The notes under the pieces: generated by a model
Seen by the model: the letters and a program-made list of their open reading frames with translations, nothing else
Told to the model about the DNA's origin: nothing
Databases searched by the model: none
Shown here: positions 26,191 through 60,936 of the stretch, one piece after another
Position numbering within the stretch: the stretch's first letter is position 1
Layout of the letters: each line of letters starts with the position of its first letter
Source of the DNA: a virus
Lineage: Duplodnaviria; Heunggongvirae; Uroviricota; Caudoviricetes
DNA: 64,000 nucleotides
IMG/VR virus record: IMGVR_UViG_3300043447_000086
Direction: 5' to 3' (one strand)
Position numbers and translations under genes: made by a program

Positions 26191-26697
26191 TTACAGGCTT
26201 TCAGCAGCTTTGTCATAACCATCCTCCTGTAGGAATTGCTTTCCCTTACCTGCCTTGACTGGAACCTTCTTAGCTTTTTGCTCTTCTGGAACTAGCTTGT
26301 CAAGTGCGATCTTGAGGATGCCGTTGAACAACTCAGCGTCTTTGACTTCATAAGAATCACCAAGAGCCCATGCACGAGTGAATGCACGGTTAGCAATACC
26401 TTTGAACACAAACGTTTCATCTGGTTCTACAGATTCAGAGTTACCTTTAACGATTAGCTTACCGCCATCGATAGTGATGTCGATTTCGTTTTGTGCGAAA
26501 CCAGCAACCGCAATCTCGATTGTGTAAGTATTACCGTTTTTACGGACGTTGAATGGAGGATAGTTTGGAATGTTTTTTGTCAAATCATCATGCAGTGCTT
26601 GCATGCGTTTGAATTGGTCATCGAAACCCAAGAAAAGTTTATCGATGTCTTTGAATGCATCTTGCGAAAAGAATGCAGGAACGAACTGTTTGTTCAT
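26191..26697 (-). CDS. Small heat-shock protein (Hsp20/alpha-crystallin family)
   Basis: 168 aa with an alpha-crystallin-like beta core (FNVRKNGNTYTIEIAVAGF ... GILKIAL). AGGAG Shine-Dalgarno upstream. Confidence 0.8.
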   Translation of the reverse strand: MNKQFVPAFFSQDAFKDIDKLFLGFDDQFKRMQALHDDLTKNIPNYPPFNVRKNGNTYTIEIAVAGFAQNEIDITIDGGKLIVKGNSESVEPDETFVFKGIANRAFTRAWALGDSYEVKDAELFNGILKIALDKLVPEEQKAKKVPVKAGKGKQFLQEDGYDKAAESL

Positions 26698-30137: not shown

Positions 30138-30644
30138 TTAAGAATTTAGAACCTTTGCACATGCGTTCATTACTGAAGCGATTCGCCCAATATCACGCAA
30201 TTGTTCAACAGTGTATCCCATCTTCTTCAATCCATCGTAGTGTGCTTTGACGCAGAAGTGACACTTACCGACGATAGATGCAGCCAGAGAGTACGATTCG
30301 AATCTCTCTTTTGTAGTTCCGCCATGCGTTGCAATCGCATTCATACGCAATTGTGCAGGTAGACCTTTCAGTTGTTCGTCGTCAGCCATCTCAACATATG
30401 GATACCATACATTGTTCTGAGCCATCAGACTTGCAGCAGTCATTGCAGCATTTGCATCTGCAGGATTATCTGCGAGCATAACGCTCAACAGTTTACCATT
30501 ACCTGTTGCTGCCAAAGCAGCAACAGCGCAACCCATAGCCTCATCGGCATCAAGAGTACTACGCAGTAGGACAGCGTCCAAGTTTAGCTTGGTGTCCTTT
30601 GCGTAGTCTGGCAACGCACCTTTTACTGATTCAATAAAACTCAT
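30138..30644 (-). CDS. AhpD-like / carboxymuconolactone decarboxylase family protein
   Basis: 168 aa with a CHFCVKAH (CxxCxxxH) AhpD-type motif. Confidence 0.65.
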   Translation of the reverse strand: MSFIESVKGALPDYAKDTKLNLDAVLLRSTLDADEAMGCAVAALAATGNGKLLSVMLADNPADANAAMTAASLMAQNNVWYPYVEMADDEQLKGLPAQLRMNAIATHGGTTKERFESYSLAASIVGKCHFCVKAHYDGLKKMGYTVEQLRDIGRIASVMNACAKVLNS

Positions 30645-31039
30645 TTCGTTTTCTCCGCTAGTTCTTTATAACCATTATATGTTGGATGAATACCGTCAGC
30701 AGACATTTCCTTGGGGCGATCAATCACTGTGTCACCAAATTCATTAGCAATCTCTCTTACCACTTGACGTTCTTGCGGTTTACGAGTTAATGAAGGTAGT
30801 ATCCAATAGACCTTACCATCAATCTTGCTACGAATAGCGTGTAAGTTATTCGCAGTCATCTTATCCCAATCATTACTACCAAGAGAAATGATGGTCGTCT
30901 TAGCATTCGGCATAGAAGCAAGATGCTTCTTTTTCCAGTCTGTTGAATTGATTCCAGACTTAGCGATAACTGCACACTCCTTACGGAAATGTGCAGTACC
31001 AACAGCAATGGAATCGCCCATCACTAAGCAATCAAGCAT
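30641..31039 (-). CDS. SGNH/GDSL hydrolase-like protein
   Basis: 132 aa with an N-terminal GDSIAVG (GDS block I) and a DGIHP-like block V. Confidence 0.55.
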   Translation of the reverse strand: MLDCLVMGDSIAVGTAHFRKECAVIAKSGINSTDWKKKHLASMPNAKTTIISLGSNDWDKMTANNLHAIRSKIDGKVYWILPSLTRKPQERQVVREIANEFGDTVIDRPKEMSADGIHPTYNGYKELAEKTK

Positions 31040-31581
31040 TACAGAGTCTCACCACCAACAGTGCGGTTGCAAGCGCAAAGTTCGCCAGTCTGCAACGCAT
31101 CAAGGATACGCAGAGTTTCTTCTGGGCTACGACCAACGTTCAAGTTGTTCACAGTAACGTGTTGGATAACGTTCTCTGGGTCAACGATGAATGTAGCACG
31201 GAGTGCTGCGCCAGCAGGATTGTAGAATACACCAAGCTGGTCGATCAGAGACTTATCCCATTCACGCTGAGTGTCAGCGAACTGGATGTGCTTGATCTTA
31301 GCCAGATCAGGGTGGGCTTTCTGCCAAGCTAGTTTACAGAATTCGTTATCTGTAGAACCAGTCAACAGAACCGCATCACGGTCTGCAAAGTCTTGGAACA
31401 ACTTATCGTATGCTACGATTTCTGTAGGACATACAAAAGTAAAGTCCTTAGGGTAGTAAACGATAATCTTCCACTTGCCTTCGAAAGAGGCTTCTGTAAT
31501 ATCAAAGAATTGGTCGCTTCCTGGGTTTACACCAGTAACAACGAACTTCTCGATTTTATCTCCAACTGTCATCATATTCAA
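31039..31581 (-). CDS. Peroxiredoxin (AhpC/TSA family)
   Basis: 180 aa with FTFVCPTE peroxidatic Cys motif and C-terminal CAC resolving-Cys region. Confidence 0.85.
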   Translation of the reverse strand: MNMMTVGDKIEKFVVTGVNPGSDQFFDITEASFEGKWKIIVYYPKDFTFVCPTEIVAYDKLFQDFADRDAVLLTGSTDNEFCKLAWQKAHPDLAKIKHIQFADTQREWDKSLIDQLGVFYNPAGAALRATFIVDPENVIQHVTVNNLNVGRSPEETLRILDALQTGELCACNRTVGGETL

Positions 31582-31598
31582 TTTCCTTTTTGTTAAAA

Positions 31599-32396
31599 TT
31601 ATTTTGGCATCATCAGAGCATTGAAGTTCGCTGGAACAACAATAGTCTGAACCTTACCTTGCTTAATACCTTCGGAGATATTAATCATCGCTTGAGCTTG
31701 CATATAAGCAATAGATTGTGCTCCTTGATTAGAAAGAGCTTGCATACGTTCAGCTTCCATCTTGGCAGTCTTCACTTCCACTTCTTTTTGCTTCAGTTCG
31801 TTCTTAGCACGAACCAAATCATTAGCAGAGGCAACAACAGAGTCAGCTGGCACAACATTACGAATCAACACTTGACCAACCATCAAACTACCGTCGAGCT
31901 TTTCGTCAGCCAATGACTTCTGGATCTGCTCTTTGATAGCGGCTTCCATTGCCTGTCGATTGTCTGCCATATCCAGTGCTTCATACTTACGTGCTTCTTT
32001 GTAGATAGCATTACGAGCAGCCTGTGTGATGTAGTTGTACATCAAGTAGATGTCGCCGTTATGACGAGCATGGAATGCCTGACTCTTAGTTGAGTACAGT
32101 TCAGCAACCTGTGCTTGGTTGATGTTGTAGATAACCACAGCATCAAAGTCTTTCATAGTGCTATTATCTTTAGCCACGGGAGTCATGTCATCAAGTTTGA
32201 CATTAACGTCCTTGATAGGAAATGTCAGCACATCGCCAATCAACACTTGATTAAATGAACCTGGCAGCAGTTCACCGCTTTGCACCTGTTTGTCAAAGCC
32301 AACACGAACACCGACTTCACCAGTTTCGATACGAGTGCAACCAGTAGCAAGAACAGCAGCAACAACCAGAGCAGAAATTTTCAAAACGCTTTTCAT
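31599..32396 (-). CDS. SPFH/band-7 (prohibitin-like) lipoprotein
   Basis: 265 aa. Signal peptide with lipobox LATGC. SPFH core followed by a coiled coil. Confidence 0.65.
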   Translation of the reverse strand: MKSVLKISALVVAAVLATGCTRIETGEVGVRVGFDKQVQSGELLPGSFNQVLIGDVLTFPIKDVNVKLDDMTPVAKDNSTMKDFDAVVIYNINQAQVAELYSTKSQAFHARHNGDIYLMYNYITQAARNAIYKEARKYEALDMADNRQAMEAAIKEQIQKSLADEKLDGSLMVGQVLIRNVVPADSVVASANDLVRAKNELKQKEVEVKTAKMEAERMQALSNQGAQSIAYMQAQAMINISEGIKQGKVQTIVVPANFNALMMPK

Positions 32397-34482: not shown

Positions 34483-34513
34483 ATATTATACACCAACTTG
34501 CACTAAAAGTCAA
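34483..34513 (-). promoter_or_regulatory. sigma70-type early promoter (TTGACT ... TATAAT, spacer about 19 nt) in the cassette downstream of cobS
   Basis: -35 at 34513..34508, -10 at 34488..34483; preceded by a hairpin at 34525..34549 and the palindrome at 34551..34566. Confidence 0.4.
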
Positions 34514-34565
34514 CACTTTTTTGCAATCCCCTACAACTTGTAAGGGATTACTAAAGTATTACTTT

Positions 34566-35726
34566 TTAGAACGGAATTTCCTCAGAAGGAGAGGGAGTCG
34601 GCGCTTCCACTACAGGCGGTGCTTCGGGAGCAGGGTTTGCAATGTTATCGTACAACTTCAGGAAGGCATCCTTAGTTGCAGAATCGAAACGATTGCAGCA
34701 CAGTTCCACAGCCTTCTCACGCTTCTTAAAGATAGCAAAGGCACGAACGATGTGAATCATACGACGAGTCGTAATCGTCTCATCTACACCACCATCTTCG
34801 AATGTGCGACGAATTGCATCAGCCCACTTAACGAGAGTCTCTGCAAATTCTTCATCCGCACAACCGTAAGATTCCATAAGATTCTGAACAATCTTAACTT
34901 CAACCTTAGCTGAAGGATACTCTTGTTCGAAGGTTACAGCGAATCGCTCCAAGAACGCTTCGTTCAGCACGTTAGTACCCATGTAGCGACCATCGTCTGA
35001 ACCCTTACCCTTAGTGTTGGCAGTGGCGCAGATATTGAAACCCTTGGCAGGAATGATCATCTCATTCTTCAGCTTAAAGTAGTAGGGTTTACCTTCGAGA
35101 ATCGGCTGCAAGCACAACAGAGTGTTGGCAGAGCCAGCGTCAATTTCGTCAAGCAGCAGAGTAGTACCAGTGCGCATAGCAATCAGCACTGGACCTTCTA
35201 CAACTTCTACGTTTCCATTCTGGAGAGTCTTAGAACCGATGAGTTGTTCCTCATCAGTCATCATGTTAAGGTTAACACGAATTAGGGGGCGGTTGTGCTT
35301 GGCACAAATCTGTTCGACCATCGTGGACTTACCGTTACCAGTTGGACCACTGATGTATGCGGGATAGAAGATACCCGACTTGATGATGTTCTCCAAATCA
35401 GTGAAGTTACCGAAGGGAACAAAGTTAGGATCTTTGACTGGAATGAGTGATTCTACATTAGTGTAGTCAACGATATATGATTCCACAGGTTCATCTTTCA
35501 ATGCGGTATTGCCATCAACAGGTGCAGTCTTGCCACCATCAATGGCGTAAATACCACGACCAACTTTATTCTTCATCAACCAAAGAGGATACTTCTCAGT
35601 CTTCAGTTTCGTCATCACATCAATCAGTTGTGGGCGAGTAACCTGCCCAGATGACTGGGTATCAGGATACATCTCGGCAAGTTTTGCCTCAAACGTAGCA
35701 CGGAAAGCATCATCAACCTTACTCAT
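34566..35726 (-). CDS. cobS: CobS/MoxR-like AAA+ ATPase
   Basis: Start trimmed to the second ATG (GGAG Shine-Dalgarno). Walker A SGPTGNGKST and Walker B LLLDEID. Paired with a downstream vWA protein, as in cobS/cobT modules. Confidence 0.7.
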   Translation of the reverse strand: MSKVDDAFRATFEAKLAEMYPDTQSSGQVTRPQLIDVMTKLKTEKYPLWLMKNKVGRGIYAIDGGKTAPVDGNTALKDEPVESYIVDYTNVESLIPVKDPNFVPFGNFTDLENIIKSGIFYPAYISGPTGNGKSTMVEQICAKHNRPLIRVNLNMMTDEEQLIGSKTLQNGNVEVVEGPVLIAMRTGTTLLLDEIDAGSANTLLCLQPILEGKPYYFKLKNEMIIPAKGFNICATANTKGKGSDDGRYMGTNVLNEAFLERFAVTFEQEYPSAKVEVKIVQNLMESYGCADEEFAETLVKWADAIRRTFEDGGVDETITTRRMIHIVRAFAIFKKREKAVELCCNRFDSATKDAFLKLYDNIANPAPEAPPVVEAPTPSPSEEIPF

Positions 35727-35756
35727 AACAAAATCTCCATTCACATCAATAAAATA

Positions 35757-35784
35757 ATTATACTACAACTAGCCAAAAAGTCAA
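35757..35784 (-). promoter_or_regulatory. sigma70-type early promoter for cobS (TTGACT-N16-TATAAT)
   Basis: -35 at 35784..35779, -10 at 35762..35757; an 11 bp hairpin (35797..35823) lies just upstream. Confidence 0.5.
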
Positions 35785-35843
35785 CATCTTTTTGGAAATA
35801 ACCCCACAAAAAGTAGGGTTATTTTCCCTGTAGTATCAACAAC

Positions 35844-38030
35844 TTAGGCTACCAAAGCCACGAAACGATTGAGTAGCACCCTAGAAGTCTTCTTGACGTT
35901 AAGGTATTTGCTGAAGTTGCGAGCAATGCTAGCAGCTTTTGCATCAGACTTTACCTCAAGTTCACCCTCTTGGATCTTCGTAGAAGATTGAGGAATCAAG
36001 AACAAGTCATCACGACCAGTATTCTTCACAGAAGCAAAGTCTTGATCACGGAATTGTTTTCTCCAGTTCTCAATCAAAACCTCTGCACTACCAGTGTAGC
36101 CTGGAAGGTTTGCCGCAATAACAGATTGCAAATCACGACGAGCATTACGACAGATGTAGAAACCAACAGTACGAACATTGTGGCGATCTTTGATCATTCG
36201 CAGAATCGCTTCAGTCTGTTGCGCAGAGTTGCCTTCCAACTCATAGGTTTTCTTCGTAACATCGTCACGGATGAAGTGACGTAGTTTGGTACGCACATAC
36301 TTGCCACCAATATATTCGTTACGCACAGGATCAAGACGACGACCATCACCACACAACTGACCACCTTCACCATCAGTAAGAGTGATGAATGTAGTCTTCT
36401 CTAGATTGTGCTTCTTGATAAAGTCACCAAGATTCAGATAGCACCAAGCCAACGCCTCATTCAGTGGTGTGCCACTGGTGCTGTAACCTTCATTCCATCG
36501 GAAACGATAGTCCAGTAGACGTTTAGCCATCTCATTAAACTCAGTAGAAGACATCTTGTCATTGAAGAATTCTAACATGTGAAAGTTTCTGGCATTGCTC
36601 AGCAAATCTTTCTGCACACCAAACTTTGCGTTGTACTCACGAATCTTACGATCACGTTCCAGACGTTCGTCATAAGACATATCTTTTTGATAGTCAGTGG
36701 TGAAGGCATACACACGATATGGAACTTGGATACGCTGGCAGAACATAGCAAGGTTGATAACCTGTTTGATAGTGTCCTGAAGAACATTTTCCATAGAACC
36801 AGACCAGTCCAGCAGCATAACCATACCATGGTTTTTACCTTGCGGTAAGGTGGTAACACGTTTGAACAAATCTTCTTGAAGTTTGTAAGCCCACACCTTA
36901 CGCATATCCAGAGAACCAACCTTGGAAACCTGAGCACGTTTGTAGAGTTGAGCAGACTTCTTCATCTCGAATTCTTTGACAAGGTAGTTTACCGTACGCA
37001 TAGAATCAGTTTTGAATTGATCGAATTCCTTAATGAAAGAACCAAAGAATTGCTTGCGAGCGGTGTCGTCCATATAGCGAGTCTTGTAGTCATTCATCTG
37101 ATACAAGTCAGCATTCCATTCGTTGAGAGACTTAGTCTCTTTCAAGATGGTTTTGTAACCAACAACAGGATCTTCGAAATAATTGGTGTCGAATTTCCAG
37201 TAAAGATACTCTGTAGAATCGTCAGCCAATTCTTCCAAACGTTTCTGGAAAACACGGTCAGTCTTAGCTTCCAAGTCTTCGCTTTGTTCTTCAGATGCAG
37301 CTTCGTCGTTTTCTTTGTTAGAACCAGACTTAGAAGATTTTAGCTTTTCGTCGCCAGCATCTTCGTCTTCATCAAAGTCATCCATATCATCGATATCAAA
37401 GTCGCCAGTGATAGGATCATCGAGGTCATCACCTTCTTCTACTTCTTCGCCAGCTTCCATGCGTTGTTTCTTACGCTCTTCAGCTTGCTGTTTGGAATAA
37501 GCATAAATTTCCTGAGCCAGCTGGACGATTTCTTCCATGGTCTCAGTGCGTTCTGCACGATTGACAAATACCTTTTCTTCGGGTGTGAATTTAACACCAC
37601 AGTCGAAACCAACTTTAAAGTACAAGTTGATGCGGTCAATCAACAGCAATTCGTTGAAGTCTTGGATAGCTTTGACGCCAAAGAAGTCACGCTCATTGAG
37701 TTGCTTATAACCTTCGTTCATGCGCTTACGAATCCCAGGATACTTGCGCTTCATCATCTTTTCGATACGCACATCTTCCAGCACGTTCATATAAGACTTC
37801 AGCTTAGGATTCTCCATAATGGGAGTCATATACTCCACACCAGTGTACAATGCGTGACCAACTTCGTGACCGATGAGCATGTCTTCGATCTCGGGAGTCA
37901 TATCTTTCCACAGGGGCAAAGTCAGAACACGAGACTTGATGTCGAAAGACGCAGTAATTGAGTTGGCACGAACAACAGAAAGGTTTTCGGTTGCAAGCAG
38001 TCGTGCGCTGAGATCAGAAGATTTCATCAT
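35844..38030 (-). CDS. von Willebrand factor A domain protein (CobT-like partner of the AAA+ ATPase)
   Basis: 728 aa with the MIDAS motif MVMLLDWSGSM and a long poly-acidic tract (EVEEGDDLDDPITGDFDIDDMDDFDEDEDAGDE). Confidence 0.7.
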   Translation of the reverse strand: MMKSSDLSARLLATENLSVVRANSITASFDIKSRVLTLPLWKDMTPEIEDMLIGHEVGHALYTGVEYMTPIMENPKLKSYMNVLEDVRIEKMMKRKYPGIRKRMNEGYKQLNERDFFGVKAIQDFNELLLIDRINLYFKVGFDCGVKFTPEEKVFVNRAERTETMEEIVQLAQEIYAYSKQQAEERKKQRMEAGEEVEEGDDLDDPITGDFDIDDMDDFDEDEDAGDEKLKSSKSGSNKENDEAASEEQSEDLEAKTDRVFQKRLEELADDSTEYLYWKFDTNYFEDPVVGYKTILKETKSLNEWNADLYQMNDYKTRYMDDTARKQFFGSFIKEFDQFKTDSMRTVNYLVKEFEMKKSAQLYKRAQVSKVGSLDMRKVWAYKLQEDLFKRVTTLPQGKNHGMVMLLDWSGSMENVLQDTIKQVINLAMFCQRIQVPYRVYAFTTDYQKDMSYDERLERDRKIREYNAKFGVQKDLLSNARNFHMLEFFNDKMSSTEFNEMAKRLLDYRFRWNEGYSTSGTPLNEALAWCYLNLGDFIKKHNLEKTTFITLTDGEGGQLCGDGRRLDPVRNEYIGGKYVRTKLRHFIRDDVTKKTYELEGNSAQQTEAILRMIKDRHNVRTVGFYICRNARRDLQSVIAANLPGYTGSAEVLIENWRKQFRDQDFASVKNTGRDDLFLIPQSSTKIQEGELEVKSDAKAASIARNFSKYLNVKKTSRVLLNRFVALVA

Positions 38031-38046: not shown

Positions 38047-38075
38047 GTAGACCACTATTATACCCTAAGTTCAAA
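38047..38075 (-). promoter_or_regulatory. sigma70-type early promoter for the vWA gene (TTGTCT-N17-TATAAT)
   Basis: -35 at 38075..38070, -10 at 38052..38047. Confidence 0.45.
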
Positions 38076-38096
38076 TAAAAGACAAGCCCTATTTTC
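38073..38096 (-). terminator. Intrinsic terminator after rIIB
   Basis: 9 bp stem CAAGCCCTA/TAGGGCTTG with a 6 nt loop, followed by UCUUUUAUUUG on the minus-strand RNA. It overlaps the -35 of the next promoter. Confidence 0.55.
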
Positions 38097-38114
38097 ATAG
38101 GGCTTGCTAAAGTT

Positions 38115-38888
38115 TTACTCTACAGGAGTCCAAGCAGGACGAACGTTGTTACCGTTTTCTTGCACAGGAGCAGTAAATGCATCCTCTGGTGCTTCTTCGG
38201 CATTCAGTTCGCCAATCACTTCGTATCGGCAAGCACGACCCTTGGCTTCGTTGTAGTCAGTTGGGATAGACACAACATCACGAGGGTTGATCTTGACGAT
38301 CATAATACGCTCACCACCAAAGTGGTTCAGGTAAGACAGACCACAGAAGTGCAGACCAGAAGAGCAGGTACGATTCTTGTCGTCATCAACTTCGTTACGT
38401 TCCATCTCCACAATCTTACCGACAGAGTTATCCATCGTGTTAGTGTGGCAATCAAAGTAGTTGTCACGCACTTTCTTGTAAGCAAGGAAGTGACCATCGG
38501 GAGTGATGGGCAGTTGGTTCTTTTCCAAGAATCCATACAGTTCGTCAACTGCACGCTTAGAAGGATTCTTGTAAAGATTCTCCATAAAGTTGACCATAGG
38601 CTCGATGGGGAAACCATCTTGCAGCATCTGGATCATGCGCACAGACATAGTGCTATGGAGTTCCTTACCTTTCCAGAAAAGAGTCTCGCCTTGGACAGAG
38701 ACATTACCCTGTCCGTAATTGAGAACAACCTTCTTGGGTTCGATGATATCTTTCACCGTATCCCAATCTTGTGCCTTGATAGCATCAAGAACTTTCTGGT
38801 ATGTAATATGGGTTTTGGAGATAGTGTGGCTCTTGTTACCAATTACCACGACGATGTTGCTACCTTGGATCAGAAAAGGGTAAGCCAT
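38115..38888 (-). CDS. rIIB: rIIB-like protein
   Basis: 257 aa immediately downstream of rIIA, arranged as in T4. Called by position and pairing only. Confidence 0.55.
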   Translation of the reverse strand: MAYPFLIQGSNIVVVIGNKSHTISKTHITYQKVLDAIKAQDWDTVKDIIEPKKVVLNYGQGNVSVQGETLFWKGKELHSTMSVRMIQMLQDGFPIEPMVNFMENLYKNPSKRAVDELYGFLEKNQLPITPDGHFLAYKKVRDNYFDCHTNTMDNSVGKIVEMERNEVDDDKNRTCSSGLHFCGLSYLNHFGGERIMIVKINPRDVVSIPTDYNEAKGRACRYEVIGELNAEEAPEDAFTAPVQENGNNVRPAWTPVE

Positions 38889-38890
38889 GA

Positions 38891-41068
38891 TTAAATACCT
38901 TTCACATTGTCAATAAGATTCACATACTCTGCAACTGCCGAAGCCTTTGCTTCACCGATGCTATCCAAAAGAGGATAGCGAGAGCACACGCTGGTGTATT
39001 CACCAACGATAGCTTTTACTGCTGCATTCAGGTCGAAGTTAATCTTCTTGCCGTAGGCAGAGTACAATTGACGGAGAGCATAGTCGCTAAAATCAACTCG
39101 CTTGTAACCATCAAATTTTTTGATATAGTTCTTGAAGGGGCTACCATCTTGAACCAGACTATGATCAAATTTAACAGGATCGCCATAACGACCACAGAGA
39201 AAAGAGAACACAGTAACCTGATCACGAGCAAGGTTCATGAGCAGGTTGTCGTCGGGAATACCGATAGAACTAGCAATGTAGTCTTCGATATTTACCCAAT
39301 TTGGTTGAGCCTTGACAGCTTCCAAATCAGTTTTACGAACACCGTAAAATTCTGTAGTGACCAGATTGCGCAGACCGCAACGCTTCATCCACTCACGCAG
39401 TTCTTTTGCATCAGTGATTCCTGCATCAGACACCATATTATAACCCGAAAGCGGGATGTAATAGTGAGTCGTGTTAGCGTCGAAAGAAGACAAGCTACCA
39501 GCATCAGCCCAAACAACAGTGTCGCTACGGTATCCACGACTGCGAGTTTCCATGCGCAGAAGGCTAACATTTCGACCAATACTAGAATCCTTACGTGGCT
39601 TCTGCAGCAGATCGCTAGCAATCATAACACGATCGCTTGGAGGGCTGGCAATGTCCGCAAAGAATTGCTTGAGTTCCATATCCTTCGTAGGATCTGCCTT
39701 GTCCAGAATGTAAACGTTCTTGGAATATGTAAGCAGATCTTTCTGACGATAGTGATACTTTGCTCTCTCACCAACACCAACTTTAGTGTCATTGACCACA
39801 AAATCAGAATTATCCGAAACAGGAAACTCCCAATATGCGACAGTCATATGACCACCCTGAGCATTTCGGCTATGGTCAGACCCATGCTTAAGATTACTGC
39901 AAGTTGGAGACCCACGGCTACGAGAGAATGCACGGATGTCGATGTTATACTTAGTCTTCAGATCTTCAACGGTAATCTTGAATCGCTTTAGGAATGCATA
40001 ACGTCCAGCATTTGGATCTACGGTTTGCAGTTTAGTATCAACTGCATACTGTTGAACTGCGGCAGTCCACAGAGGATGATCAATCTTCTTGGAAAGAAAG
40101 ATGGCACGATCCCACAAGTTAGGAATAGCCTCAGCATCTGCTTTGACACGAACAGAAAGTGCGTCACGGACAGCGGTAAGTTTGTTCTTGATAGCCTCAA
40201 CAGTCTGAGGAATATAAGACAGACCTTCACGGCTGGCTTGGAAGTCAACTTCGCCAATACCAAAGTGAATTTCCAGACCACATTGCAGCATGGACTGAAG
40301 ACCACCAAGCTGCTCAGCGTTTGGCACTTCGATAGGATACGCAATGTTACCCATCACAGCCCTGCTGGTGTTTCGACCATGGCGATCAGCCAACACATGC
40401 ACACCAGCAATCAGGTTTTCAGTTTCATACTGAATTAAGTCAAAACGAAATTCTGAGCAACCCCTGATAACAGGCTTCAGCTTGAAGTAACGATAGACAG
40501 ATCTAGCTTCGTCACGAAACTTGTTGTAGTCATAGCGATCATTGACAGAGAATTTAATCTCTACGCCAGCAGGGTCATCAGTCTGCTCTTCCATCATCAG
40601 TGCGATAGATGGCACACCTTCTGCATTGATGAATGCAGAGTAGATACCCTTGCGACCATCTTTGATGGCAGTCACCGTAAAGTTGTCAGTGTAGCTGAAT
40701 GGAGACTTGGAGCCAAGACCCAGCGCACCGATGAAATCATTGGATGCAGTCTTAGTAGACTCAAAGTAAGTAGTATAGATGTTGGTGACTTGTTCGTGGC
40801 TCAAACCAGTACCAAAATCACGGATGCTGAAGTGCGGTTCAAGAGCATTGGGCAGATGAACCTCGAACGGAACATCTGATTTTCCAGCAGCAGTGTGCGA
40901 GTCAACTGCATTGCAGGACAACTCACGCACAATCGCTTTGATCTTGTTCGCATACAGACCACTCGAAAGAATGTTGAATGCTTTAGCAGAGTTACGAATA
41001 CGGAATTCGCCGATCTCGCCTACGTTAGACAGGATCGCTTGGTTGTCGGGGGCAGTGTTCAGTATCAT
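38891..41068 (-). CDS. rIIA: rIIA-like protein (N-terminal GHKL/Bergerat ATPase fold)
   Basis: 725 aa, the same length as T4 rIIA. N-terminal VRELSCNAVDSH and DFGTGLS GHKL motifs. Confidence 0.75.
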   Translation of the reverse strand: MILNTAPDNQAILSNVGEIGEFRIRNSAKAFNILSSGLYANKIKAIVRELSCNAVDSHTAAGKSDVPFEVHLPNALEPHFSIRDFGTGLSHEQVTNIYTTYFESTKTASNDFIGALGLGSKSPFSYTDNFTVTAIKDGRKGIYSAFINAEGVPSIALMMEEQTDDPAGVEIKFSVNDRYDYNKFRDEARSVYRYFKLKPVIRGCSEFRFDLIQYETENLIAGVHVLADRHGRNTSRAVMGNIAYPIEVPNAEQLGGLQSMLQCGLEIHFGIGEVDFQASREGLSYIPQTVEAIKNKLTAVRDALSVRVKADAEAIPNLWDRAIFLSKKIDHPLWTAAVQQYAVDTKLQTVDPNAGRYAFLKRFKITVEDLKTKYNIDIRAFSRSRGSPTCSNLKHGSDHSRNAQGGHMTVAYWEFPVSDNSDFVVNDTKVGVGERAKYHYRQKDLLTYSKNVYILDKADPTKDMELKQFFADIASPPSDRVMIASDLLQKPRKDSSIGRNVSLLRMETRSRGYRSDTVVWADAGSLSSFDANTTHYYIPLSGYNMVSDAGITDAKELREWMKRCGLRNLVTTEFYGVRKTDLEAVKAQPNWVNIEDYIASSIGIPDDNLLMNLARDQVTVFSFLCGRYGDPVKFDHSLVQDGSPFKNYIKKFDGYKRVDFSDYALRQLYSAYGKKINFDLNAAVKAIVGEYTSVCSRYPLLDSIGEAKASAVAEYVNLIDNVKGI

Positions 41069-41100
41069 TACAAAGTCTCTTTCTCAATCACAATAAAGTT

Positions 41101-41128
41101 ATTATACACCAATCTGCAAAAAAGACAA
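41101..41128 (-). promoter_or_regulatory. sigma70-type early promoter for rIIA (TTGTCT-N16-TATAAT)
   Basis: -35 at 41128..41123, -10 at 41106..41101. The core sequence is nearly identical to the promoter at 25270..25297. Confidence 0.5.
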
Positions 41129-41140
41129 GCATTAAATGAT

Positions 41141-41164
41141 AATCCCCTCAAAAGATGAGGGGAT
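41141..41164 (-). terminator. Hairpin after nadV (10 bp stem, AAAG loop), terminator-like
   Basis: AATCCCCTCA/TGAGGGGATT, followed by a U-rich tract on the minus-strand RNA. Confidence 0.45.
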
Positions 41165-41209
41165 TAAGTGCTGTAAAATCAACAACTTACGAAAAGTAAA
41201 CCTAAAGTA

Positions 41210-42604
41210 TTACTTTTTGGCGGTTGCTCGGACTTCCTCGAAGGTGTATTCCTTAACAAGTTTGCCGTCACGGAACACTTCTTGCAAGACTGGAGCCCAT
41301 GTAAAGCCACGATCAGTCCAAGTATTTGGACGAGAGACAGAAGAGATATACTCACCACCACTTTCCCAAAGTTGCACACGACCTGCTTTAGACTTTTTAC
41401 CACTATCAGTGATAGGGTCTTTTTGGACATCCACCCATTCACCATTGATAAGAGCAGCAGAACACTTCATTGCGAACTTCTGAGTGTCACGATCCACTTG
41501 TTGAAGCAGAGCACCACCCATACCAAAAGCAATGTTGTCGGCACTCCAACCATATGCTTGGAATCCACCAAGGATCATACGAATTGTGTGTTCGTTAACA
41601 CCGTCACCTTGGATAAGACGAACGTTGTTCAAGACTTTATAGCCTTTGTCGTTAGTAGTGTAACCGAACTTATCGCCGAGGATGGCCACAAGTTTTCTAC
41701 ATACAGTGTCAGGATCCCCAGAGTCTGGACGGATGACAACAGTAGCGCCACTATCAATAACCTTCTGCTTGAGTTCTTCACCCCAGAGTTTAGATGCAGC
41801 GTTGAAGATATCATAACTATCGCTAACCACTGCAAGAATAGAACCAGGCTTAGCAAATTGATCAACCATGTTGGCATATGCTTTTACCTCATTGTCACGA
41901 CCCCAGCTAGTGATTGTGCTATGCTCAGCAGCAGGGATGGAGAAGCCAGCAATACCAGCGCTGTAGTACTCACGAGCATACAAAATCCCAGAAAGGGTAT
42001 CTGTACCCATGAAGTTGACAAGGTGCGCTGCTCCGCCAATTCCAGCAGACTCCATACTAGAGACACCACGAGCACCAAAGTCATGCAACTTAAAATCAAT
42101 AGTTGTAGGATCACCAGTTTTCTCCAGATAGTCAAGAATCACTTTGCGGATTGTGTAGCTTTGCGTAGCCACAGTCACAGGGTACCACACAGCACGCAGC
42201 AGAGCAGTTTCCAGATAAGTGGTCAACCAAAACGCTTTTGGATCAGTGTTTTCAATAGTTGCCAAAACGTTTTTAACAGGAACCACTGTGCCTTCAGGAA
42301 CAGCCCGAATAACGACAGGAAGGAAACCTCCGTGTGCTGATAGAATGTATTCCCATCCTTCTCGGTTGAAAGGTTCGCCATGGGCTGTAAGAATTTCATC
42401 AGCAATATCAATATCGGCTTGGGTGATTGGTTCAAGCAGGTACTCCTTAATGAATGCTTGTAGACCGAACATCACGGTTTCGTCGTAACGACCACCACGA
42501 GATTCGATGTAGCTGTAGACGCCAGTTGTACCAGCGGGATATTGTTTGAACATGCTAGTCTTGTAGCTGTCAGTGTTCAAAAGAATGTTTTTTGCGAGTT
42601 TCAT
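41210..42604 (-). CDS. nadV: Nicotinamide phosphoribosyltransferase (NadV/NAMPT)
   Basis: 464 aa with a type II PRTase fold, size and conserved blocks typical of NAMPT (e.g. GDGV, HTIRMILGGF). Confidence 0.8.
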   Translation of the reverse strand: MKLAKNILLNTDSYKTSMFKQYPAGTTGVYSYIESRGGRYDETVMFGLQAFIKEYLLEPITQADIDIADEILTAHGEPFNREGWEYILSAHGGFLPVVIRAVPEGTVVPVKNVLATIENTDPKAFWLTTYLETALLRAVWYPVTVATQSYTIRKVILDYLEKTGDPTTIDFKLHDFGARGVSSMESAGIGGAAHLVNFMGTDTLSGILYAREYYSAGIAGFSIPAAEHSTITSWGRDNEVKAYANMVDQFAKPGSILAVVSDSYDIFNAASKLWGEELKQKVIDSGATVVIRPDSGDPDTVCRKLVAILGDKFGYTTNDKGYKVLNNVRLIQGDGVNEHTIRMILGGFQAYGWSADNIAFGMGGALLQQVDRDTQKFAMKCSAALINGEWVDVQKDPITDSGKKSKAGRVQLWESGGEYISSVSRPNTWTDRGFTWAPVLQEVFRDGKLVKEYTFEEVRATAKK

Positions 42605-42619
42605 GATTAGCTCCTAATC

Positions 42620-43594
42620 TTAGAGTTTTACAAAAGCAGGCATCGGCATGACACCTGTTACTTTGGAAACGATGTCCTTGTGGTCATCGTACATTTCAAT
42701 GTTGTTCAGCGCATCAGTAAGTGGCACCCACTTGCACAGAGCAGCATCATCAGCACCATTGGCACGTGGCAGCGAGTTGTCAGGATTCGGACTAATTCGC
42801 ATATACACAGCCATAGTGTTTCGGGGAATACCGAATGAACGATTCGGATTATCGAACAATTCGGTCTTCACGATAGAGCCACGGAGAACTTTCTCTGGGA
42901 CTCGCACGTTGGTTTCTTCAATCAATTCACGGATGGCGCAGTCAAGAAATGTTTCACGCTGATTGCGAAAACCTCCTGGAAGTGCCCATGCACCTCGTCC
43001 TGGACTAAACTTGCGTTGAATAAGCAAGATGTGTCCTTGACATTCGAGGATAGCATCGGAACAGTTGAAGTTGAGTGTTTCGGGGAATGGATAATCTTTG
43101 AAGAGTTGTTTTTCTTTTTGGTAGAAAGCATAGTCGCCTCTGACAGTTTCTGGCATTAGAGGGTCATCGTTCTTAAACATTTCTTCACGAATCATCGTGG
43201 CGTTGATCTGATATTGAGCCTCAATGCTCTTAAATTTTAGTTCTGGGAACCACTTGAGATAATCGTTACCTTCTTTCATGTGCCCGAACAGAATCGGCGA
43301 GCCCATGGTGTAATGTTCGATAGTTGCACGGACGTCAGACATCCATTGCGTATCGCTGTAACGATAATCGTTAATTGGGAGAATTTCGTAGTTTGTGATT
43401 CGCTCAGCGTGCAGTCTCAGTTGGAGCATTTGCTTACGCTCTTGAAACGACCAAGGATTCTTGATACTACGGCATTGGTTAGCGGAACCAATGAGGATGT
43501 ACAGTTTTTGTACTTGGGATGCAGCCACTCCGAGTGCATGGATGTGACCTTGATGTACGGGCTGGAAACGCCCAATGAAGATACCAGTTTTCAT
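42620..43594 (-). CDS. natV: Bifunctional NMN adenylyltransferase / Nudix hydrolase (NatV/NadM-like)
   Basis: Track start 43630 is GTG. The ATG at 43594 has an AAGGAG Shine-Dalgarno. NMNAT motif GIFIGRFQPVHQGH and Nudix box GGFRNQRETFLDCAIRELIEETNV. Confidence 0.8.
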   Translation of the reverse strand: MKTGIFIGRFQPVHQGHIHALGVAASQVQKLYILIGSANQCRSIKNPWSFQERKQMLQLRLHAERITNYEILPINDYRYSDTQWMSDVRATIEHYTMGSPILFGHMKEGNDYLKWFPELKFKSIEAQYQINATMIREEMFKNDDPLMPETVRGDYAFYQKEKQLFKDYPFPETLNFNCSDAILECQGHILLIQRKFSPGRGAWALPGGFRNQRETFLDCAIRELIEETNVRVPEKVLRGSIVKTELFDNPNRSFGIPRNTMAVYMRISPNPDNSLPRANGADDAALCKWVPLTDALNNIEMYDDHKDIVSKVTGVMPMPAFVKL

Positions 43595-43649
43595 TCTAAA
43601 CTCCTTAGAATCTTGTAGGGTGACCACCACCCTACAATTTATATATCGA

Positions 43650-43678
43650 ATTCTACTCTTGAATCAGCTAAAAGTCAA
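43650..43678 (-). promoter_or_regulatory. sigma70-type promoter for natV (TTGACT-N17-TAGAAT) with a 5'-UTR hairpin (43613..43637)
   Basis: -35 at 43678..43673, -10 at 43655..43650. Confidence 0.45.
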
Positions 43679-43869
43679 CTAATTTTTTGGATAGTTGCTC
43701 GCCAGAAGTAATCTGGTGTTCCACCTTTTTCCCAGTGGGCTTTATACGCCTCAGCTTCTTCAAGAGTTGTAAAGAACTTGGTGTCATTTTCGTCAACACG
43801 CTGTCCCCAACCACGTTCATATTCGGTAACAGTGACTTTGTAAAGACCAGACAGTTTGACTTCAGACAT
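43675..43869 (-). CDS. Hypothetical small protein
   Basis: Track start is TTG. The ATG at 43869 has an AAGGAG Shine-Dalgarno, giving 64 aa. Confidence 0.45.
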   Translation of the reverse strand: MSEVKLSGLYKVTVTEYERGWGQRVDENDTKFFTTLEEAEAYKAHWEKGGTPDYFWRATIQKIS

Positions 43870-43895
43870 TTCCAACTCCTTTCCTATGTAACTTT

Positions 43896-43924
43896 AGTAT
43901 ACAGTAGGCGAGGGTAAAAGTCAA
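43896..43924 (-). promoter_or_regulatory. sigma70-type early promoter (TTGACT-N17-TATACT) directly downstream of gene 46
   Basis: -35 at 43924..43919, -10 at 43901..43896. The 16 nt palindrome (43931..43946) lies 6 nt upstream of the -35. Confidence 0.5.
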
Positions 43925-43942
43925 CACCTTAAAAGTAATACT

Positions 43943-45661
43943 TTAGTTTGTAACTATTACCGAGAAGTCGTTACGCTTTTCAAACTTAATAACTGAACGA
44001 AACTTATCGAACAGCTGGTCACCCTTGTGACTGATAACGAAGATGTTAGAGTTTTCACCAAAGGTGTTCATCAGGTTCAAGAAGTAATCAGTACCAGCTG
44101 TATCCAAACTTGAGTCGAAGATCTCATCAAGCAGCAGAAGGTTAGTGTTGACGCTGTTCTTCATCTTAGCAATCTGACGCCACGTGAAAAGGATAGCCAA
44201 GTCAATACGCATCTTCTCACCTTCAGAGAAGCTGGCGTAAGTAAATTCATCACGATGTCGAGACTTGACAATCTCGTTGAAAGACTCATCAAGTTCAAAG
44301 TGGATGTAGGCATCCATAGCATTCAGGTACTTGTTGATCATTTTATTCATAATCGGCAGATACTCACGAATGATAGCTGTCTTGATGCCAGTGTCTTTCA
44401 ACAGAATGTTAGCAACCTCTTCCAAGTTACGTTGTTCTTGTAGTTGAGTTTTCTCTTTAATCTTAGAAACAGCATCTTGTGCAAGTTGCTTTAGCTTATT
44501 CTTTTCTTCATCGATGTTAGTCGTGTCAGATTGAATCGCTAGAACTTCAGCTTCTGCTTCTTTGATCTGTCGATTGAGTAAGGTGATAGATGAGTTCTTT
44601 GTAGACAGTTCAATGTTCTTGTCGGAAATCTTCTGTAGAACTTCATTAATTGAAGAAAGTTTTTCTTGAAGTTTGGTGTGGACTGCGTTGAGTTCATCAA
44701 CCTTGCTGTTTTGTTCTGACAGTTTCTGATTAAGATCTTTGAGAATACTCTCTTTGTATTGTTCAGATATATCTTGGTTGCAAGACGGGCATACATCGTG
44801 TTCTCCAAAGAACTCAACGTGATGCTCACAAGTTTCGACTTTTTGTAGCAGTCGCTGTTGTAGTTGATCTGCTTTGGCGAGATCTTCTTTGATCTTGTCT
44901 TTGTCTGCAACCTGATCCTTAAGCGTTGTAATTTGTCGGACAAGCTCATCAATCTCCGATTGATTTCGGCTAATTTCTTCATTGCTGCTCGAGATTTTCG
45001 CCTGTATGGATCTAATATTATCTGCTTTCGCTTCCGAGATAGTTTTAATAATAGCAGTTTGTGCTTCGACTTTAGTCTTAGCATTCGCAACTTCATTTTC
45101 AATCCTTTGGATCGCATCTTTAGTCTCCTGAGCCTTTTCTTTTAGAATGTGATTCATCGTTGAGAAAATGCGAATATCAAGGATGTCTTCAATAACATCA
45201 CGACGTTGACCAGATGGTAACTGCATAAATGGAACGAAAGAAGCAGATCCCAAGATAACCACCTGAGTGAATGTCTTGTAGTTCAACTTTAGAATCTGTT
45301 GCTCCAAAACTTTCTGGTAGTCACGTGATGCTGCATCCTGATTGATCAATTCATCGTTCAGATAGATCTCAAAGATGTTTGGTTTAATACCACGAACGAT
45401 TTTATAGTTGCGTGGACCGATAGAGAACTCAATCGTAACAACACACTTTTTACCATTGATAGAGTTTACCAATTGTCCTTTGTTGATGTTACGGAACGGT
45501 TTACCGAAAAGCGAAAAGCACAATGCATCTAAGATTGTGCTCTTACCTTCACCATTCTTACCGATGATCAGTGTTGTTGTAGACTTATCCAGTAATACTT
45601 TGTTAGGGGTATTTCCTGTAGACAGAAAGTTCATCCATTCAACGCTCTTGAAAACAATCAT
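43943..45661 (-). CDS. 46: Recombination endonuclease subunit gp46 (SbcC/Rad50-like ATPase)
   Basis: 572 aa with Walker A GKNGEGKST, central coiled coil, CPSC zinc hook and LLLDEIFDSSLD Walker B/D-loop. Confidence 0.9.
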   Translation of the reverse strand: MIVFKSVEWMNFLSTGNTPNKVLLDKSTTTLIIGKNGEGKSTILDALCFSLFGKPFRNINKGQLVNSINGKKCVVTIEFSIGPRNYKIVRGIKPNIFEIYLNDELINQDAASRDYQKVLEQQILKLNYKTFTQVVILGSASFVPFMQLPSGQRRDVIEDILDIRIFSTMNHILKEKAQETKDAIQRIENEVANAKTKVEAQTAIIKTISEAKADNIRSIQAKISSSNEEISRNQSEIDELVRQITTLKDQVADKDKIKEDLAKADQLQQRLLQKVETCEHHVEFFGEHDVCPSCNQDISEQYKESILKDLNQKLSEQNSKVDELNAVHTKLQEKLSSINEVLQKISDKNIELSTKNSSITLLNRQIKEAEAEVLAIQSDTTNIDEEKNKLKQLAQDAVSKIKEKTQLQEQRNLEEVANILLKDTGIKTAIIREYLPIMNKMINKYLNAMDAYIHFELDESFNEIVKSRHRDEFTYASFSEGEKMRIDLAILFTWRQIAKMKNSVNTNLLLLDEIFDSSLDTAGTDYFLNLMNTFGENSNIFVISHKGDQLFDKFRSVIKFEKRNDFSVIVTN

Positions 45662-58764: not shown

Positions 58765-60936
58765 TTACGCACCTAGCTCAGTGAAGCTAATGCTAGAACG
58801 AGCAGCCACGAAGTTCAGAGTAATAAAGTTGATAGAACGGTTTGGCTTGACGAAGATGTCTGCAACAAATTGGTTGGAGTCAATGACTTGACCAGTGTTG
58901 TTAGACTCATCGCACTTAACAGCGAAATCTGTAATACCACGGCGACCTTGAATGTCACGTAGGAATGGTTCGATCAAATTCTTGAACTGAGCACGTGTGA
59001 ACGGATCGTTGAATTCGAACAGCTGGAACTTGGCAGCAGTAGCGATAGCCTTTTCCATAACGATGAACAGACGACGAACGTTGATACGATCGAAAGCACT
59101 TGGCTTAGCCAATAGAGTCTTGTCACCGAATAGAACAGTACCTTCACCTGGGAAGGAAACCACTGGGTTAACGCCAATCTTGTACAGAACATCACGGTCT
59201 GCTTTAGTTGGGTTGTGAGCCAATTTAACAACGTTCTTGATCTGACCACGGTTTAGACCAGATGGAGAGAACCATGGGTCATTAGTGTAATCAGTACGAG
59301 CACATAGACCAGCAGTATCACCGTTCAATGGGATCCAACGGTACTTGTCGTTGTAACGGTCGTACTGGTACTTGTAACCAGAGTCAAGCACAGCGTAAGA
59401 AGTGCTTGGTAGAGCGTTACGGTAAGCAACGATCTTGTCAGTAGCAGCAGAGCCAGTACCGATAACTGGGTCACCAGAAGATACATCTTGTGCAGATACA
59501 AACACAACGCAGTCTAGGCGAGATTCTGCAATACCGATAACGTAGTTAGCAACAGTTGGAGAAGCCTTACCTACTGGAATTAAAGAAATGTCGTATTGCA
59601 CATCGTCAGCAAATTGAGCGAACGCAGTCATTGTTTCGCCGTCAGTAGCAGTCAAGCTATCAACGCCACCACCTAGAGAGCGAGTAACCGCAGCACTCAA
59701 AGAAGAGAATGCTTTAGCTGCAGCTTGTGTACCCCAGTTAGCTGCAACAGCTGCTGGGTGATCCATCCAATAGATGTATTCAGAACCTGCGTTAATAGCG
59801 TCTTTGTAGTAGTTGTTAGTACCATCAGATTTCTTAGCATCAGATGCTTTAGAAACGAATGCAAATTTTTCTAGAACAGTTCCTGGAGTACCAGTCCATA
59901 GACCATCTTCGTCGATAACTACAACGTGTACTTCGTCGTTAGAACCATTAACAGAAGCAGAGTATGTAGATGTGCTTGGGGCGCTATCGAAGTTAGCTTT
60001 GTATGCCCAAGTAGCAAATGTTGCAGAGTCAGCCATAGAAACTAACAAAGAGTTTCCTAGAGCACCTGGATAACGAGCAGCCCACTCACCAAACACGCCA
60101 GCACCGTTAGCGAAAGATGTTAGGTAATCTTGAGAGTTATTGATCTTAACGCCAGATACCGCAGCAGTTGCAGTAGCAGTAGCAGTAGTTCCAGAAGCTG
60201 GAGCAGCGATAGTAACTGTTGGAGCAGAAGTGTAACCAGAACCAGCGTTAGTGATAGTGAAACCAACAACACTAGAACCAGAAATAGTTACTGTACCAAC
60301 TGTTGCACCAGTACCAGTACCAGTGATGCTTACTGTTGGAGCAGAAGTGTAACCAGAACCAGCGTTAGTGATAGTGATACCAGTAACTGCACCACCTGCT
60401 ATAGTCACTGTACCAGTAGCAGCAACACCACCTTGAGTTTGTGGATTGCTAAATGTTGCAGTAGCAGTACCACTGTAACCAGATCCACCAGAAGCGATAG
60501 TTACCGCAGTAACACCACCACCAGAAATAACAGCAGTAGCAGTTGCTTGAGTTCCACCTGCGTCTTGAGGGGCAGAAAGAGAAACTGCTGGAATGCTAGT
60601 GTAACCAGAACCAGCAACGTTAATTGCAATACTAGAAACGCTACCAGACTGAATAGCGACAGAATTTCTTGCTGCTGCGCTATCAGTACGGCTGATAAGC
60701 ATACTGTTTGTGTAAGATAGGAAGTTAGCAGCAGTAAAGAATGCCTGAGCGTTAGCATCAGATGGCTTACCGAAGATACGAACTAATTCATTCTCGGAAG
60801 TGACACTAGTAGGAGCCAAGACTGGACCCCACGCAAAAGGACCAGCGAAAGCGCCACGAGAGCTAGAAACAGCTGGAACGATTGCTGAAAAATCTTTTTC
60901 AACGACTGCAACGCCTGGAGATAGTTGGAAAGGCAT
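58765..60936 (-). CDS. 18: Tail sheath protein gp18 with inserted tandem GSGYTSAPTV repeat domain
   Basis: 723 aa with a conserved sheath C-terminal domain. Residues 80-270 hold four to five units of a roughly 30 aa repeat (...ITNAGSGYTSAPTVSITG...). Confidence 0.85.
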   Translation of the reverse strand: MPFQLSPGVAVVEKDFSAIVPAVSSSRGAFAGPFAWGPVLAPTSVTSENELVRIFGKPSDANAQAFFTAANFLSYTNSMLISRTDSAAARNSVAIQSGSVSSIAINVAGSGYTSIPAVSLSAPQDAGGTQATATAVISGGGVTAVTIASGGSGYSGTATATFSNPQTQGGVAATGTVTIAGGAVTGITITNAGSGYTSAPTVSITGTGTGATVGTVTISGSSVVGFTITNAGSGYTSAPTVTIAAPASGTTATATATAAVSGVKINNSQDYLTSFANGAGVFGEWAARYPGALGNSLLVSMADSATFATWAYKANFDSAPSTSTYSASVNGSNDEVHVVVIDEDGLWTGTPGTVLEKFAFVSKASDAKKSDGTNNYYKDAINAGSEYIYWMDHPAAVAANWGTQAAAKAFSSLSAAVTRSLGGGVDSLTATDGETMTAFAQFADDVQYDISLIPVGKASPTVANYVIGIAESRLDCVVFVSAQDVSSGDPVIGTGSAATDKIVAYRNALPSTSYAVLDSGYKYQYDRYNDKYRWIPLNGDTAGLCARTDYTNDPWFSPSGLNRGQIKNVVKLAHNPTKADRDVLYKIGVNPVVSFPGEGTVLFGDKTLLAKPSAFDRINVRRLFIVMEKAIATAAKFQLFEFNDPFTRAQFKNLIEPFLRDIQGRRGITDFAVKCDESNNTGQVIDSNQFVADIFVKPNRSINFITLNFVAARSSISFTELGA

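Follow-up and report, generated by a model that had tools for sequence, protein, structure and literature searches.

A natV-nadV gene pair in an uncultured estuarine T4-like phage: a probable NARP2-type NAD+ reconstitution operon preceded by a structured leader

The NadV/NatV salvage route, which was described first in the T4-like vibriophage KVP40 and has since been named NARP2, rebuilds nicotinamide adenine dinucleotide (NAD+) in two steps, in which nicotinamide phosphoribosyltransferase (Nampt) converts phosphoribosyl pyrophosphate (PRPP) and nicotinamide to nicotinamide mononucleotide (NMN), and NMN adenylyltransferase (Nmnat) converts the latter to NAD+ (bioRxiv 10.1101/2024.02.11.579819). 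The KVP40 pair raises NAD+ in infection and abolishes Thoeris and DSR2 defence; an Nmnat is encoded by 94% of the phages that carry a KVP40-type Nampt, and NARP2 is found in ~1.1% of sequenced phages (bioRxiv 10.1101/2024.02.11.579819). A survey of viral NAD+ systems reported NadV, the Nampt-type enzyme, in 22% of phages of medium size, in 33% of jumbo phages and in every one of the phages that carry NadM (PMC9503650). The NARP1 (Adps and Namat) and NARP3 (PnuC and NadR) pathways reach the same outcome, i.e., NAD+ rebuilt in infection, and Namat is homologous to NadV; however, NARP1 requires the PRPS-like Adps and uses ADP-ribose pyrophosphate (ADPR-PP), and NARP3 imports nicotinamide riboside. 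Here, we analyse a window of 64,000 nucleotides (the whole stretch of DNA under study) from the IMG/VR virus record IMGVR_UViG_3300043447_000086, in which two adjacent genes, natV and nadV, very probably constitute a NARP2-type NAD+ reconstitution operon. The chemistry of the pathway and its counter-defence role are already established, and the locus is a further example; through it, an estuarine T4-like lineage joins the phages with NARP2, along with dozens of related contigs of viruses, which speaks for a wide occurrence of NAD+ reconstitution where defences that deplete NAD+ are frequent.

The window is DNA of an uncultured phage from an estuary, a T4-like myovirus by its Pfam and PHROG matches, and nearly all of its open reading frames (ORFs) lie on the minus strand. 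The natV and nadV genes are intact, adjacent and co-oriented on this strand, with 15 nt between them, and the pair is placed in an accessory (hyperplastic) stretch between gp46 and gp45 (Table 1). NatV is 324 aa long from an ATG at 43594, with the Shine-Dalgarno sequence AAGGAG 7 nt upstream, and public gene calls likewise give a product of 324 aa; NadV is 464 aa long. An alternative natV start at GTG 43630 (336 aa), which appears in a mechanical list of ORFs, was rejected: it falls within a leader hairpin (HP1, described below), it has no Shine-Dalgarno sequence, and relatives begin at the ATG.

NadV is, from its sequence, a clear nicotinamide phosphoribosyltransferase (NAMPT). It contains the Pfam domains NAMPT_N (PF18127, 5e-27, residues 6-99) and NAPRTase (PF04095, 2e-61, residues 171-410), and scores 656 bits, above the cutoff of 405, with the NCBIfam equivalog NF006629 / PRK09198, a model whose product name says 'nicotinate' and whose members are NadV-type enzymes. 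Its match to PHROG 448 (nicotinamide phosphoribosyl transferase) reaches 2.7e-166. It can be aligned over its entire length with the Xanthomonas NAMPT 7yqo (E 5e-176), and likewise with mammalian NAMPT, to which it is 48% identical (E 1e-129). Its residues were mapped by alignment to chain 2gvl_A, in native mammalian numbering. Mammalian Y18, F193, R196, D219, H247 and R311 are identical in NadV (Y14, F176, R179, D202, H228 and R292), as are D313, D354, G383/G384, R392 and K400 (D294, D334, G363/G364, R372 and K380). All of these residues line the nicotinamide/PRPP site. In structural work on NAMPT, Y18 and F193 serve in stacking, D219 selects nicotinamide and H247 is the phospho-histidine, and R196, R311, G383/G384, R392 and K400 bind the phosphoribosyl moiety. 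Human S275 is replaced by an alanine in NadV, as in the Xanthomonas NAMPT, and the mammalian insertion 42-51 is missing, as in the bacterial enzymes.

NatV is, on similar grounds, a NadM-type NMN adenylyltransferase (NMNAT) fused to a Nudix domain, with Pfam matches to CTP_transf_like (PF01467, 2.8e-11) and NUDIX (3.1e-17). In the adenylyltransferase domain, GRFQPVHQGH occupies residues 8-17 and provides the HxGH signature (H14-Q-G-H17), and a second motif, INATMIR (130-136), is aligned with FSSTAIR in Synechocystis and FNATEFR in Francisella. The Nudix box extends from G207 to V229 (GFRNQRETFLDCAIRELIEETNV), and reads G207-X5-E213-X7-R221-E222-L-I-E225-E226-T-N228-V229 against the consensus GX5EX7REUXEEXGU. 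Its sole deviation is the replacement of G by N at position 228, where Francisella NadM (2qjt) has the same residue (EETNI) and Synechocystis has R. Over its full length, NatV matches the Synechocystis NadM-Nudix protein 2qjo (E 3.8e-50) and also Francisella 2qjt, which are annotated as NMN adenylyltransferase/ADP-ribose pyrophosphatases; the C-terminal domain aligns with these solved homologues throughout, including the region past the Nudix box. NCBIfam models of bifunctional NMNAT/Nudix proteins match NatV with E-values of up to 7e-71.

Elsewhere in the window, two paralogous ORFs on the minus strand (4755-5366 and 7992-8837) have nucleotidyltransferase motifs of the HIGH type, GRMNPPTAGH and GRFNPPTLAH; between them lie DUF6267, DUF6321 and a ferritin-like gene. 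The two ORFs were considered as additional NMNATs and rejected, their Pfam match to CTP_transf_like being marginal (~1e-4 to 1e-5) and without a link to NAD+.

Altogether, the two products would form the complete route from nicotinamide through NMN to NAD+, as in KVP40. Transcribed early as a bicistronic operon, the genes would supply a NadV that makes NMN from nicotinamide and PRPP and a NatV whose N-terminal domain makes NAD+ from NMN and ATP. The C-terminal Nudix domain would most likely cleave ADP-ribose to AMP and ribose-5-phosphate, which the host Prs could convert to PRPP again. The pair could then recycle both products of NAD+ cleavage, because NadV would use the nicotinamide and the Nudix domain of NatV would regenerate ribose-5-phosphate for PRPP. 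NAD+ would thereby be kept available in infection, and by analogy with the KVP40 experiments this may blunt NAD+-depleting defences such as Thoeris, DSR, SIR2-HerA and SEFIR. The gene content is that of NARP2, with a Nampt-type gene and an Nmnat homologue in the same phage, here adjacent. Among ~55 ORFs of the 64-kb window (those of at least ~130 aa), Pfam detected no Prs/Adps, PnuC or NadR domain, i.e., none of the partners found in NARP1 or NARP3.

A sequence-only reading that preceded this analysis had reported the two reading frames, with the coordinates and lengths given here, and both do lie on the minus strand; the HxGH motif and the Nudix box that it had quoted are both present. It had named the loss of NadV catalytic residues and a degenerate Nudix box as the findings that would speak against it, and in fact all the NadV residues checked are there and the Nudix box is sound, with the single change shared by Francisella NadM. 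The complete pathway that it had proposed is supported by the family models, the solved-structure homologues and the residue checks. It was also right that such pairs occur in vibriophages and other T4-like phages, in which protein homologues are found, and the comparison with KVP40 NatV that it had suggested gives homology at 41% identity.

How does the locus compare with these known systems? KVP40 has the same two families and the same NMNAT-Nudix fusion, and it is likewise a T4-like myovirus. Its pathway has been tested biochemically and counters Thoeris and DSR2. The sequences are diverged, and KVP40 differs in its arrangement, since the annotation places no nadV within 4 kb of its natV, whereas the genes of the window lie in one tight operon. 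The window therefore resembles more closely the Acidovorax phage ACP17 (Busanvirus), the closest cultured phage with both genes, where natV and nadV are likewise neighbours, co-oriented and in the window's order, with small hypothetical genes around them (49.5% identity for NatV and 59.7% for NadV). By the same token, the tight operon is not new either. ACP17 differs from the window by its GC-rich genome, its different backbone and its lack of the leader hairpin motif. Bacterial salvage enzymes, such as the Xanthomonas NAMPT 7yqo, Synechocystis slr0787 (2qjo) and Francisella NadM (2qjt), show full-length homology to the window proteins and keep the same motifs, but the window genes are phage-borne and are preceded by predicted promoters of phage early type. 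At the nucleotide level, a megablast search with positions 41000-43900 returned no match among 50,697 phage records, and the relatives in cultured phages are found at the protein level only. An identical NadV protein is recorded in estuary and other metagenome assemblies, with the same neighbours.

Uncultured relatives are far closer. Searching IMG/VR with NatV yielded 35 loci (designated L below), 33 of them at 78-94% amino-acid identity, and the pair is conserved: natV is followed by nadV in 33 of the 33 loci that hold both genes. The genes around the pair are by comparison highly variable, the nearest neighbours belonging to ~10 unrelated families upstream and ~7 downstream, which include HD-domain, phosphatase-like, AAA ATPase and RNA ligase proteins. 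Nucleotide similarity to the window begins at ~43611 and stops at ~41193, at most ~17 nt from the coding ends. Loci that share the backbone of the window (gp47, gp46, ..., CobT-like, CobS-like) vary in their accessory content, and in the remaining loci the neighbours have no detectable similarity to those of the window. The rIIA-rIIB block (38115-41068) is a case in point: the window, L012 and L033 have it, whereas L003-L005, L011 and L013, otherwise syntenic, do not. In the window, this block is flanked by two stem-loop/promoter elements (41165-41101 and 38107-38057), and the genomes that do not have the block hold a copy of the 41100-41199 element at a different position. Even the short natV-nadV spacer is interrupted in L004, L005, L016 and L020, by insertions of 1.5-2.2 kb located exactly at the spacer, so the spacer itself is an insertion hot spot. 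The insert of L004 and L005 (2.2 kb, 8992-11093) comprises about seven small ORFs; those of L016 (8986-9948) and L020 (7224-8638), of 1.5 kb, encode a radical-SAM protein and, in L020, also a nucleoside 2-deoxyribosyltransferase-like protein. Upstream of natV, the 64-aa ORF is 84-88% identical in L003, L006, L008 and L036, diverged (40-44%) in L004 and L005, and absent from other contexts.

The edges of the pair are marked by promoter and stem-loop elements. In T4-like phages, PeSL elements consist of a stem-loop, a sigma70-like promoter close behind it and then the Shine-Dalgarno sequence and start codon of the next gene; they are repeated in hyperplastic regions and located at indel boundaries (PMC4122927). 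The 3' flank of the pair has this canonical anatomy, with a stem-loop, a promoter, a Shine-Dalgarno sequence and the ATG of rIIA (41068) in succession, and the stem-loop is probably also a weak terminator of the operon. The 5' flank does not: here the promoter precedes the hairpin, and the hairpin stands directly before the Shine-Dalgarno sequence, with no space for a promoter between the two. The sequence-only reading had described a PeSL-like cassette with promoters on both sides; it holds for the promoters, predicted on both flanks, and for the downstream element, but the promoter-then-hairpin arrangement upstream is not a canonical PeSL. An equivalent promoter is found at the same place before natV in L006, L011-L013, L015, L017-L028 and L033, and in nearly all loci nadV is followed by stem-loop/promoter composites, one compact form of which has its -35 box between the arms of the stem.

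Promoter-like matches in the region number 17 against 20.9 expected from shuffles, i.e., not above chance. With a stricter pattern on the coding strand, 11 of 16 matches are intergenic, and intergenic DNA makes up ~9-10% of the window. Five of these strict promoters, before rIIA and before the genes starting at 38030, 35726, 34442 and 25237, each follow a stem-loop that is rich in G+C and has CCC(C)...GGG(G) at its core; all five elements lie within the accessory region from gp46 to gp45. As repeats, their promoter parts belong to a single family (65-83% identity); the rIIA promoter belongs to repeat families D3/D4, with copies at 25270-25318, 34484-34507, 35756-35804 and 38056-38079. These elements are like the PeSL elements of T4-like phages (Arbiol 2010; Comeau 2014, PMC4122927) in the order of their parts, in their hyperplastic setting and in their coincidence with indels, whereas the element upstream of natV has the reverse order and a hairpin that is specific to natV rather than a generic repeat. 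The association with indels is seen in the homology breaks at the elements, in the presence or absence of the rIIA-rIIB block and in the variable neighbours, from which we infer that recombination may occur at PeSL-type elements. A terminator-like match inside natV (42657-42637) was discarded, such matches numbering 8 in the region against 8.1 expected from shuffles.

The fixed order, the varying neighbours, the sharp edges of homology and the elements at both ends support the idea of a cassette: the pair appears to behave as a portable, discrete module, bounded by promoter/stem-loop elements in a reshuffled gp46-gp45 region. The alternative, in which ordinary gene turnover surrounds a vertically inherited pair and PeSL elements do not mobilise it, is a possibility to be taken seriously, if not one that we favour. 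Indeed, in loci with the same backbone (L003-L006, L011, L013 and L033), the pair keeps its place, with gp46 on one side and the CobT-like gene on the other, and its neighbours vary, just as turnover would have it. Yet in unrelated contexts homology ends within ~17 nt of the pair, promoter and stem-loop elements stand at its ends in nearly every locus, and the neighbour families are as numerous as described above, all of which speaks against turnover alone. As such a module, compact, sharply bounded and fixed in its inner order, the operon would be a clean natural example of modular shuffling at promoter/stem-loop elements.

As to function, some points weigh against a NARP2 operon that counters defence. 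NatV falls below the cut-offs of all seven NCBIfam PRK05379.x equivalogs (the best, NF003786, at 239.3 against 397), and is on this measure a diverged member that shares the architecture of those bacterial NadM-Nudix lineages and is not their equivalog. The absence of Adps is that of a 64-kb window in a genome of roughly 170 kb. Moreover, NARP2 raises NAD+ even in cells that have no defence system (bioRxiv 10.1101/2024.02.11.579819), and an anti-defence role is thus inseparable, by sequence, from general metabolic support. The pair may accordingly be viewed as a general auxiliary metabolic module, which supplies NAD+ for replication in nutrient-poor estuarine or marine hosts and affects NADase defences only incidentally. 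This view, which involves the same chemistry and differs in the selective reason only, gains from the effect in defence-free cells, and the presence in the window of AhpC, carboxymuconolactone decarboxylase (CMD), ferritin-like, Hsp20, SPFH and CobS-like proteins would fit a broad remodelling of the host. We nevertheless consider it doubtful as the whole explanation, since the KVP40 homologues counter defence in direct experiments (bioRxiv 10.1101/2024.02.11.579819) and the Nudix fusion is best explained if NADase effectors are at work and yield ADP-ribose as their product; general NAD+ support and counter-defence are in any case compatible and not mutually exclusive roles. It is improbable, though conceivable, that the Nudix domain does not recycle ADP-ribose and instead limits or regulates NAD(H) by hydrolysing NAD+/NADH, or decaps NAD-RNA. 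The viral survey describes the Nudix domain of NadM as a regulator of NAD+ level through NAD+ cleavage (PMC9503650), and a substrate range is unreadable from the Nudix box alone; the annotation of the nearest solved homologues as ADP-ribose pyrophosphatases, aligned over the whole C-terminal domain, argues the other way. A reading of NadV as a NARP1-type Namat, joining nicotinamide to ADPR-PP instead of PRPP with NatV as an accessory, is hardly credible. It draws on the homology of Namat and Nampt and on a weak side activity of KVP40 Nampt on ADPR-PP (bioRxiv 10.1101/2024.02.11.579819). It would, however, call for an Adps, not seen among the window ORFs scanned; NadV is accompanied by an Nmnat, which is the mark of the Nampt/NARP2 clade, and no phage with both pathways was found (bioRxiv 10.1101/2024.02.11.579819). 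NadV is also much nearer to the bona fide NAMPTs of bacteria and mammals, and it keeps every residue of the PRPP/NMN site. A NARP2-type operon remains the reading that we prefer.

Upstream of this probable NARP2 operon, the natV leader contains two hairpins, HP1 and HP2. Among 15 distinct variants of the leader, 97.5% of the HP1 cells are paired, and seven of the eight pairs are altered on both sides. When the partner columns are slid by 1-3, 29-49% of the cells are paired and the covariation score, 0.92 for HP1, is 0.03-0.19; none of 500 shuffles reached the observed paired cells or covariation score. These values come from an alignment anchored on the loop, which favours structure somewhat, but RNAalifold also predicts both HP1 and HP2 from an unanchored MAFFT alignment of whole leaders. 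The closing G-C pair of HP1 is invariant and its pentaloop is always GYRGT (top G|GYRGT|C), while the HP2 stem follows ATTCTWA/TWAGAAT across the leaders, one pair alternating between U-A and A-U in a 9:8 ratio. The window leader itself folds at -19.8 kcal/mol (z = -4.6).

In 28+ related loci, the leader motif is confined to natV. Over 504 kb, a covariance model of the leader, which includes the Shine-Dalgarno sequence and the first four natV codons and is thus biased to the natV position, has a single match in each locus, invariably just ahead of natV, and no other convincing match. A direct scan of the window for hairpins with a GYRGT loop found no other intergenic example, the rest lying inside coding regions in numbers near chance. 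The Rfam scan of positions 40900-44100 (E up to 10) gave three chance-level matches only (E 1.5-8) and neither a nadA/pnuC NAD+ riboswitch nor any other known family, so the natV leader is not a known riboswitch; the two-hairpin motif was not found before the natV of KVP40 or in ACP17. In the loci that have the promoter, 8-12 nt separate its -10 box from HP1 downstream, which would place the hairpin at the extreme 5' end of the transcript. HP1 is in its simplest reading a 5' stabiliser, and the invariance of its loop hints at a specific ligand. One may go further and regard the leader as a dedicated, undescribed cis-regulatory RNA that controls the NAD+ reconstitution operon and travels with the cassette between phage backbones; this is a speculative proposal, which we hold to be unlikely. 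It could, for instance, serve a phage or host protein as its operator, or switch stability or translation according to the stage of infection or the NAD+/ADP-ribose status. This natV-specific structured leader would be a candidate regulator of counter-defence expression and, like the modularity of the operon, leaves the known biochemistry unchanged.

Table 1. Coordinates of the natV-nadV locus and its flanking elements in the 64,000-nucleotide window.
Feature	Position	Strand	Description
64-aa ORF promoter, sigma70-like (predicted)	43896-43924	minus	pattern match
Small ORF, 64 aa	43675-43869	minus	own promoter at 43896-43924; PHROG match weak only
natV promoter, sigma70-like (predicted)	43650-43678	minus	TTGACT, 17 nt, TAGAAT; -35 overlaps stop codon of 64-aa ORF
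Leader hairpin HP1	43613-43637	minus	10-bp stem, loop GTGGT; structure-conserved, natV-specific
Leader hairpin HP2	43593-43611	minus	stem ATTCTAA/TTAGAAT; GGAG of Shine-Dalgarno in loop; first two bases of ATG in stem
natV	42620-43594	minus	bifunctional NMN adenylyltransferase/Nudix; NMNAT residues ~1-150, Nudix domain ~180-310
natV-nadV spacer	42605-42619	minus	15 nt; bears nadV Shine-Dalgarno AGGAG
nadV	41210-42604	minus	NAMPT; Pfam, NCBIfam, PHROG, solved structures, active-site residues
Stem-loop after nadV	41141-41165	minus	AATCCCCTCA/TGAGGGGATT; stem-loop half of PeSL-type element
rIIA promoter, sigma70-like (predicted)	41101-41128	minus	TTGTCT (-35, 41128-41123), 16 nt, TATAAT (-10, 41106-41101)
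PeSL-type family	25271-25340, 34485-34560, 35757-35830, 38057-38107, 41101-41165	minus	shared promoter TTGWCTTTT...TATAAT

The wider genetic context of the pair is that of a T4-like genome. In the direction of the coding strand, the genes for the neck protein, gp15, terminase, tail sheath, tail tube, portal and prohead protease are followed by those for the scaffold, the gp23 capsid protein, UvsY and a UvsW-type helicase. Then come gp47 and gp46 (SbcD/SbcC-like), the 64-aa ORF, natV, nadV, rIIA and rIIB, and next the 728-aa protein, the CobS-like AAA ATPase, SPFH, AhpC, CMD, gp45, gp44, RegA and Hsp20. DNA ligase, DNA polymerase, UvsX and a DNA-hypermodification cluster complete the order, and the polymerase shares only ~55% identity with the polymerases of cyanomyoviruses and of uncultured marine viruses.

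The host-like accessory genes occupy the minus strand at 26191-26697, 30138-32396, 7546-7992 and 34566-38030, and encode Hsp20, a carboxymuconolactone decarboxylase-family protein, an AhpC/TSA peroxiredoxin, an SPFH/Band 7 protein and a ferritin-like protein, together with the CobS-like AAA_5 ATPase, which adjoins the 728-aa protein without a Pfam match. The hypermodification-type cluster (11008-15411, minus strand) includes a Tet/JBP 2OG-Fe oxygenase (13990-15411), a glutamine amidotransferase (13274-13990), an amino acid:DNA transferase ADDT (11627-12646) and a P-loop nucleotide kinase 3 (11008-11616). Finally, the gp18-like tail sheath gene (58765-60936) contains, at 60167-60504, tandem direct repeats of ~117 nt with sub-repeats of 45-50 nt.

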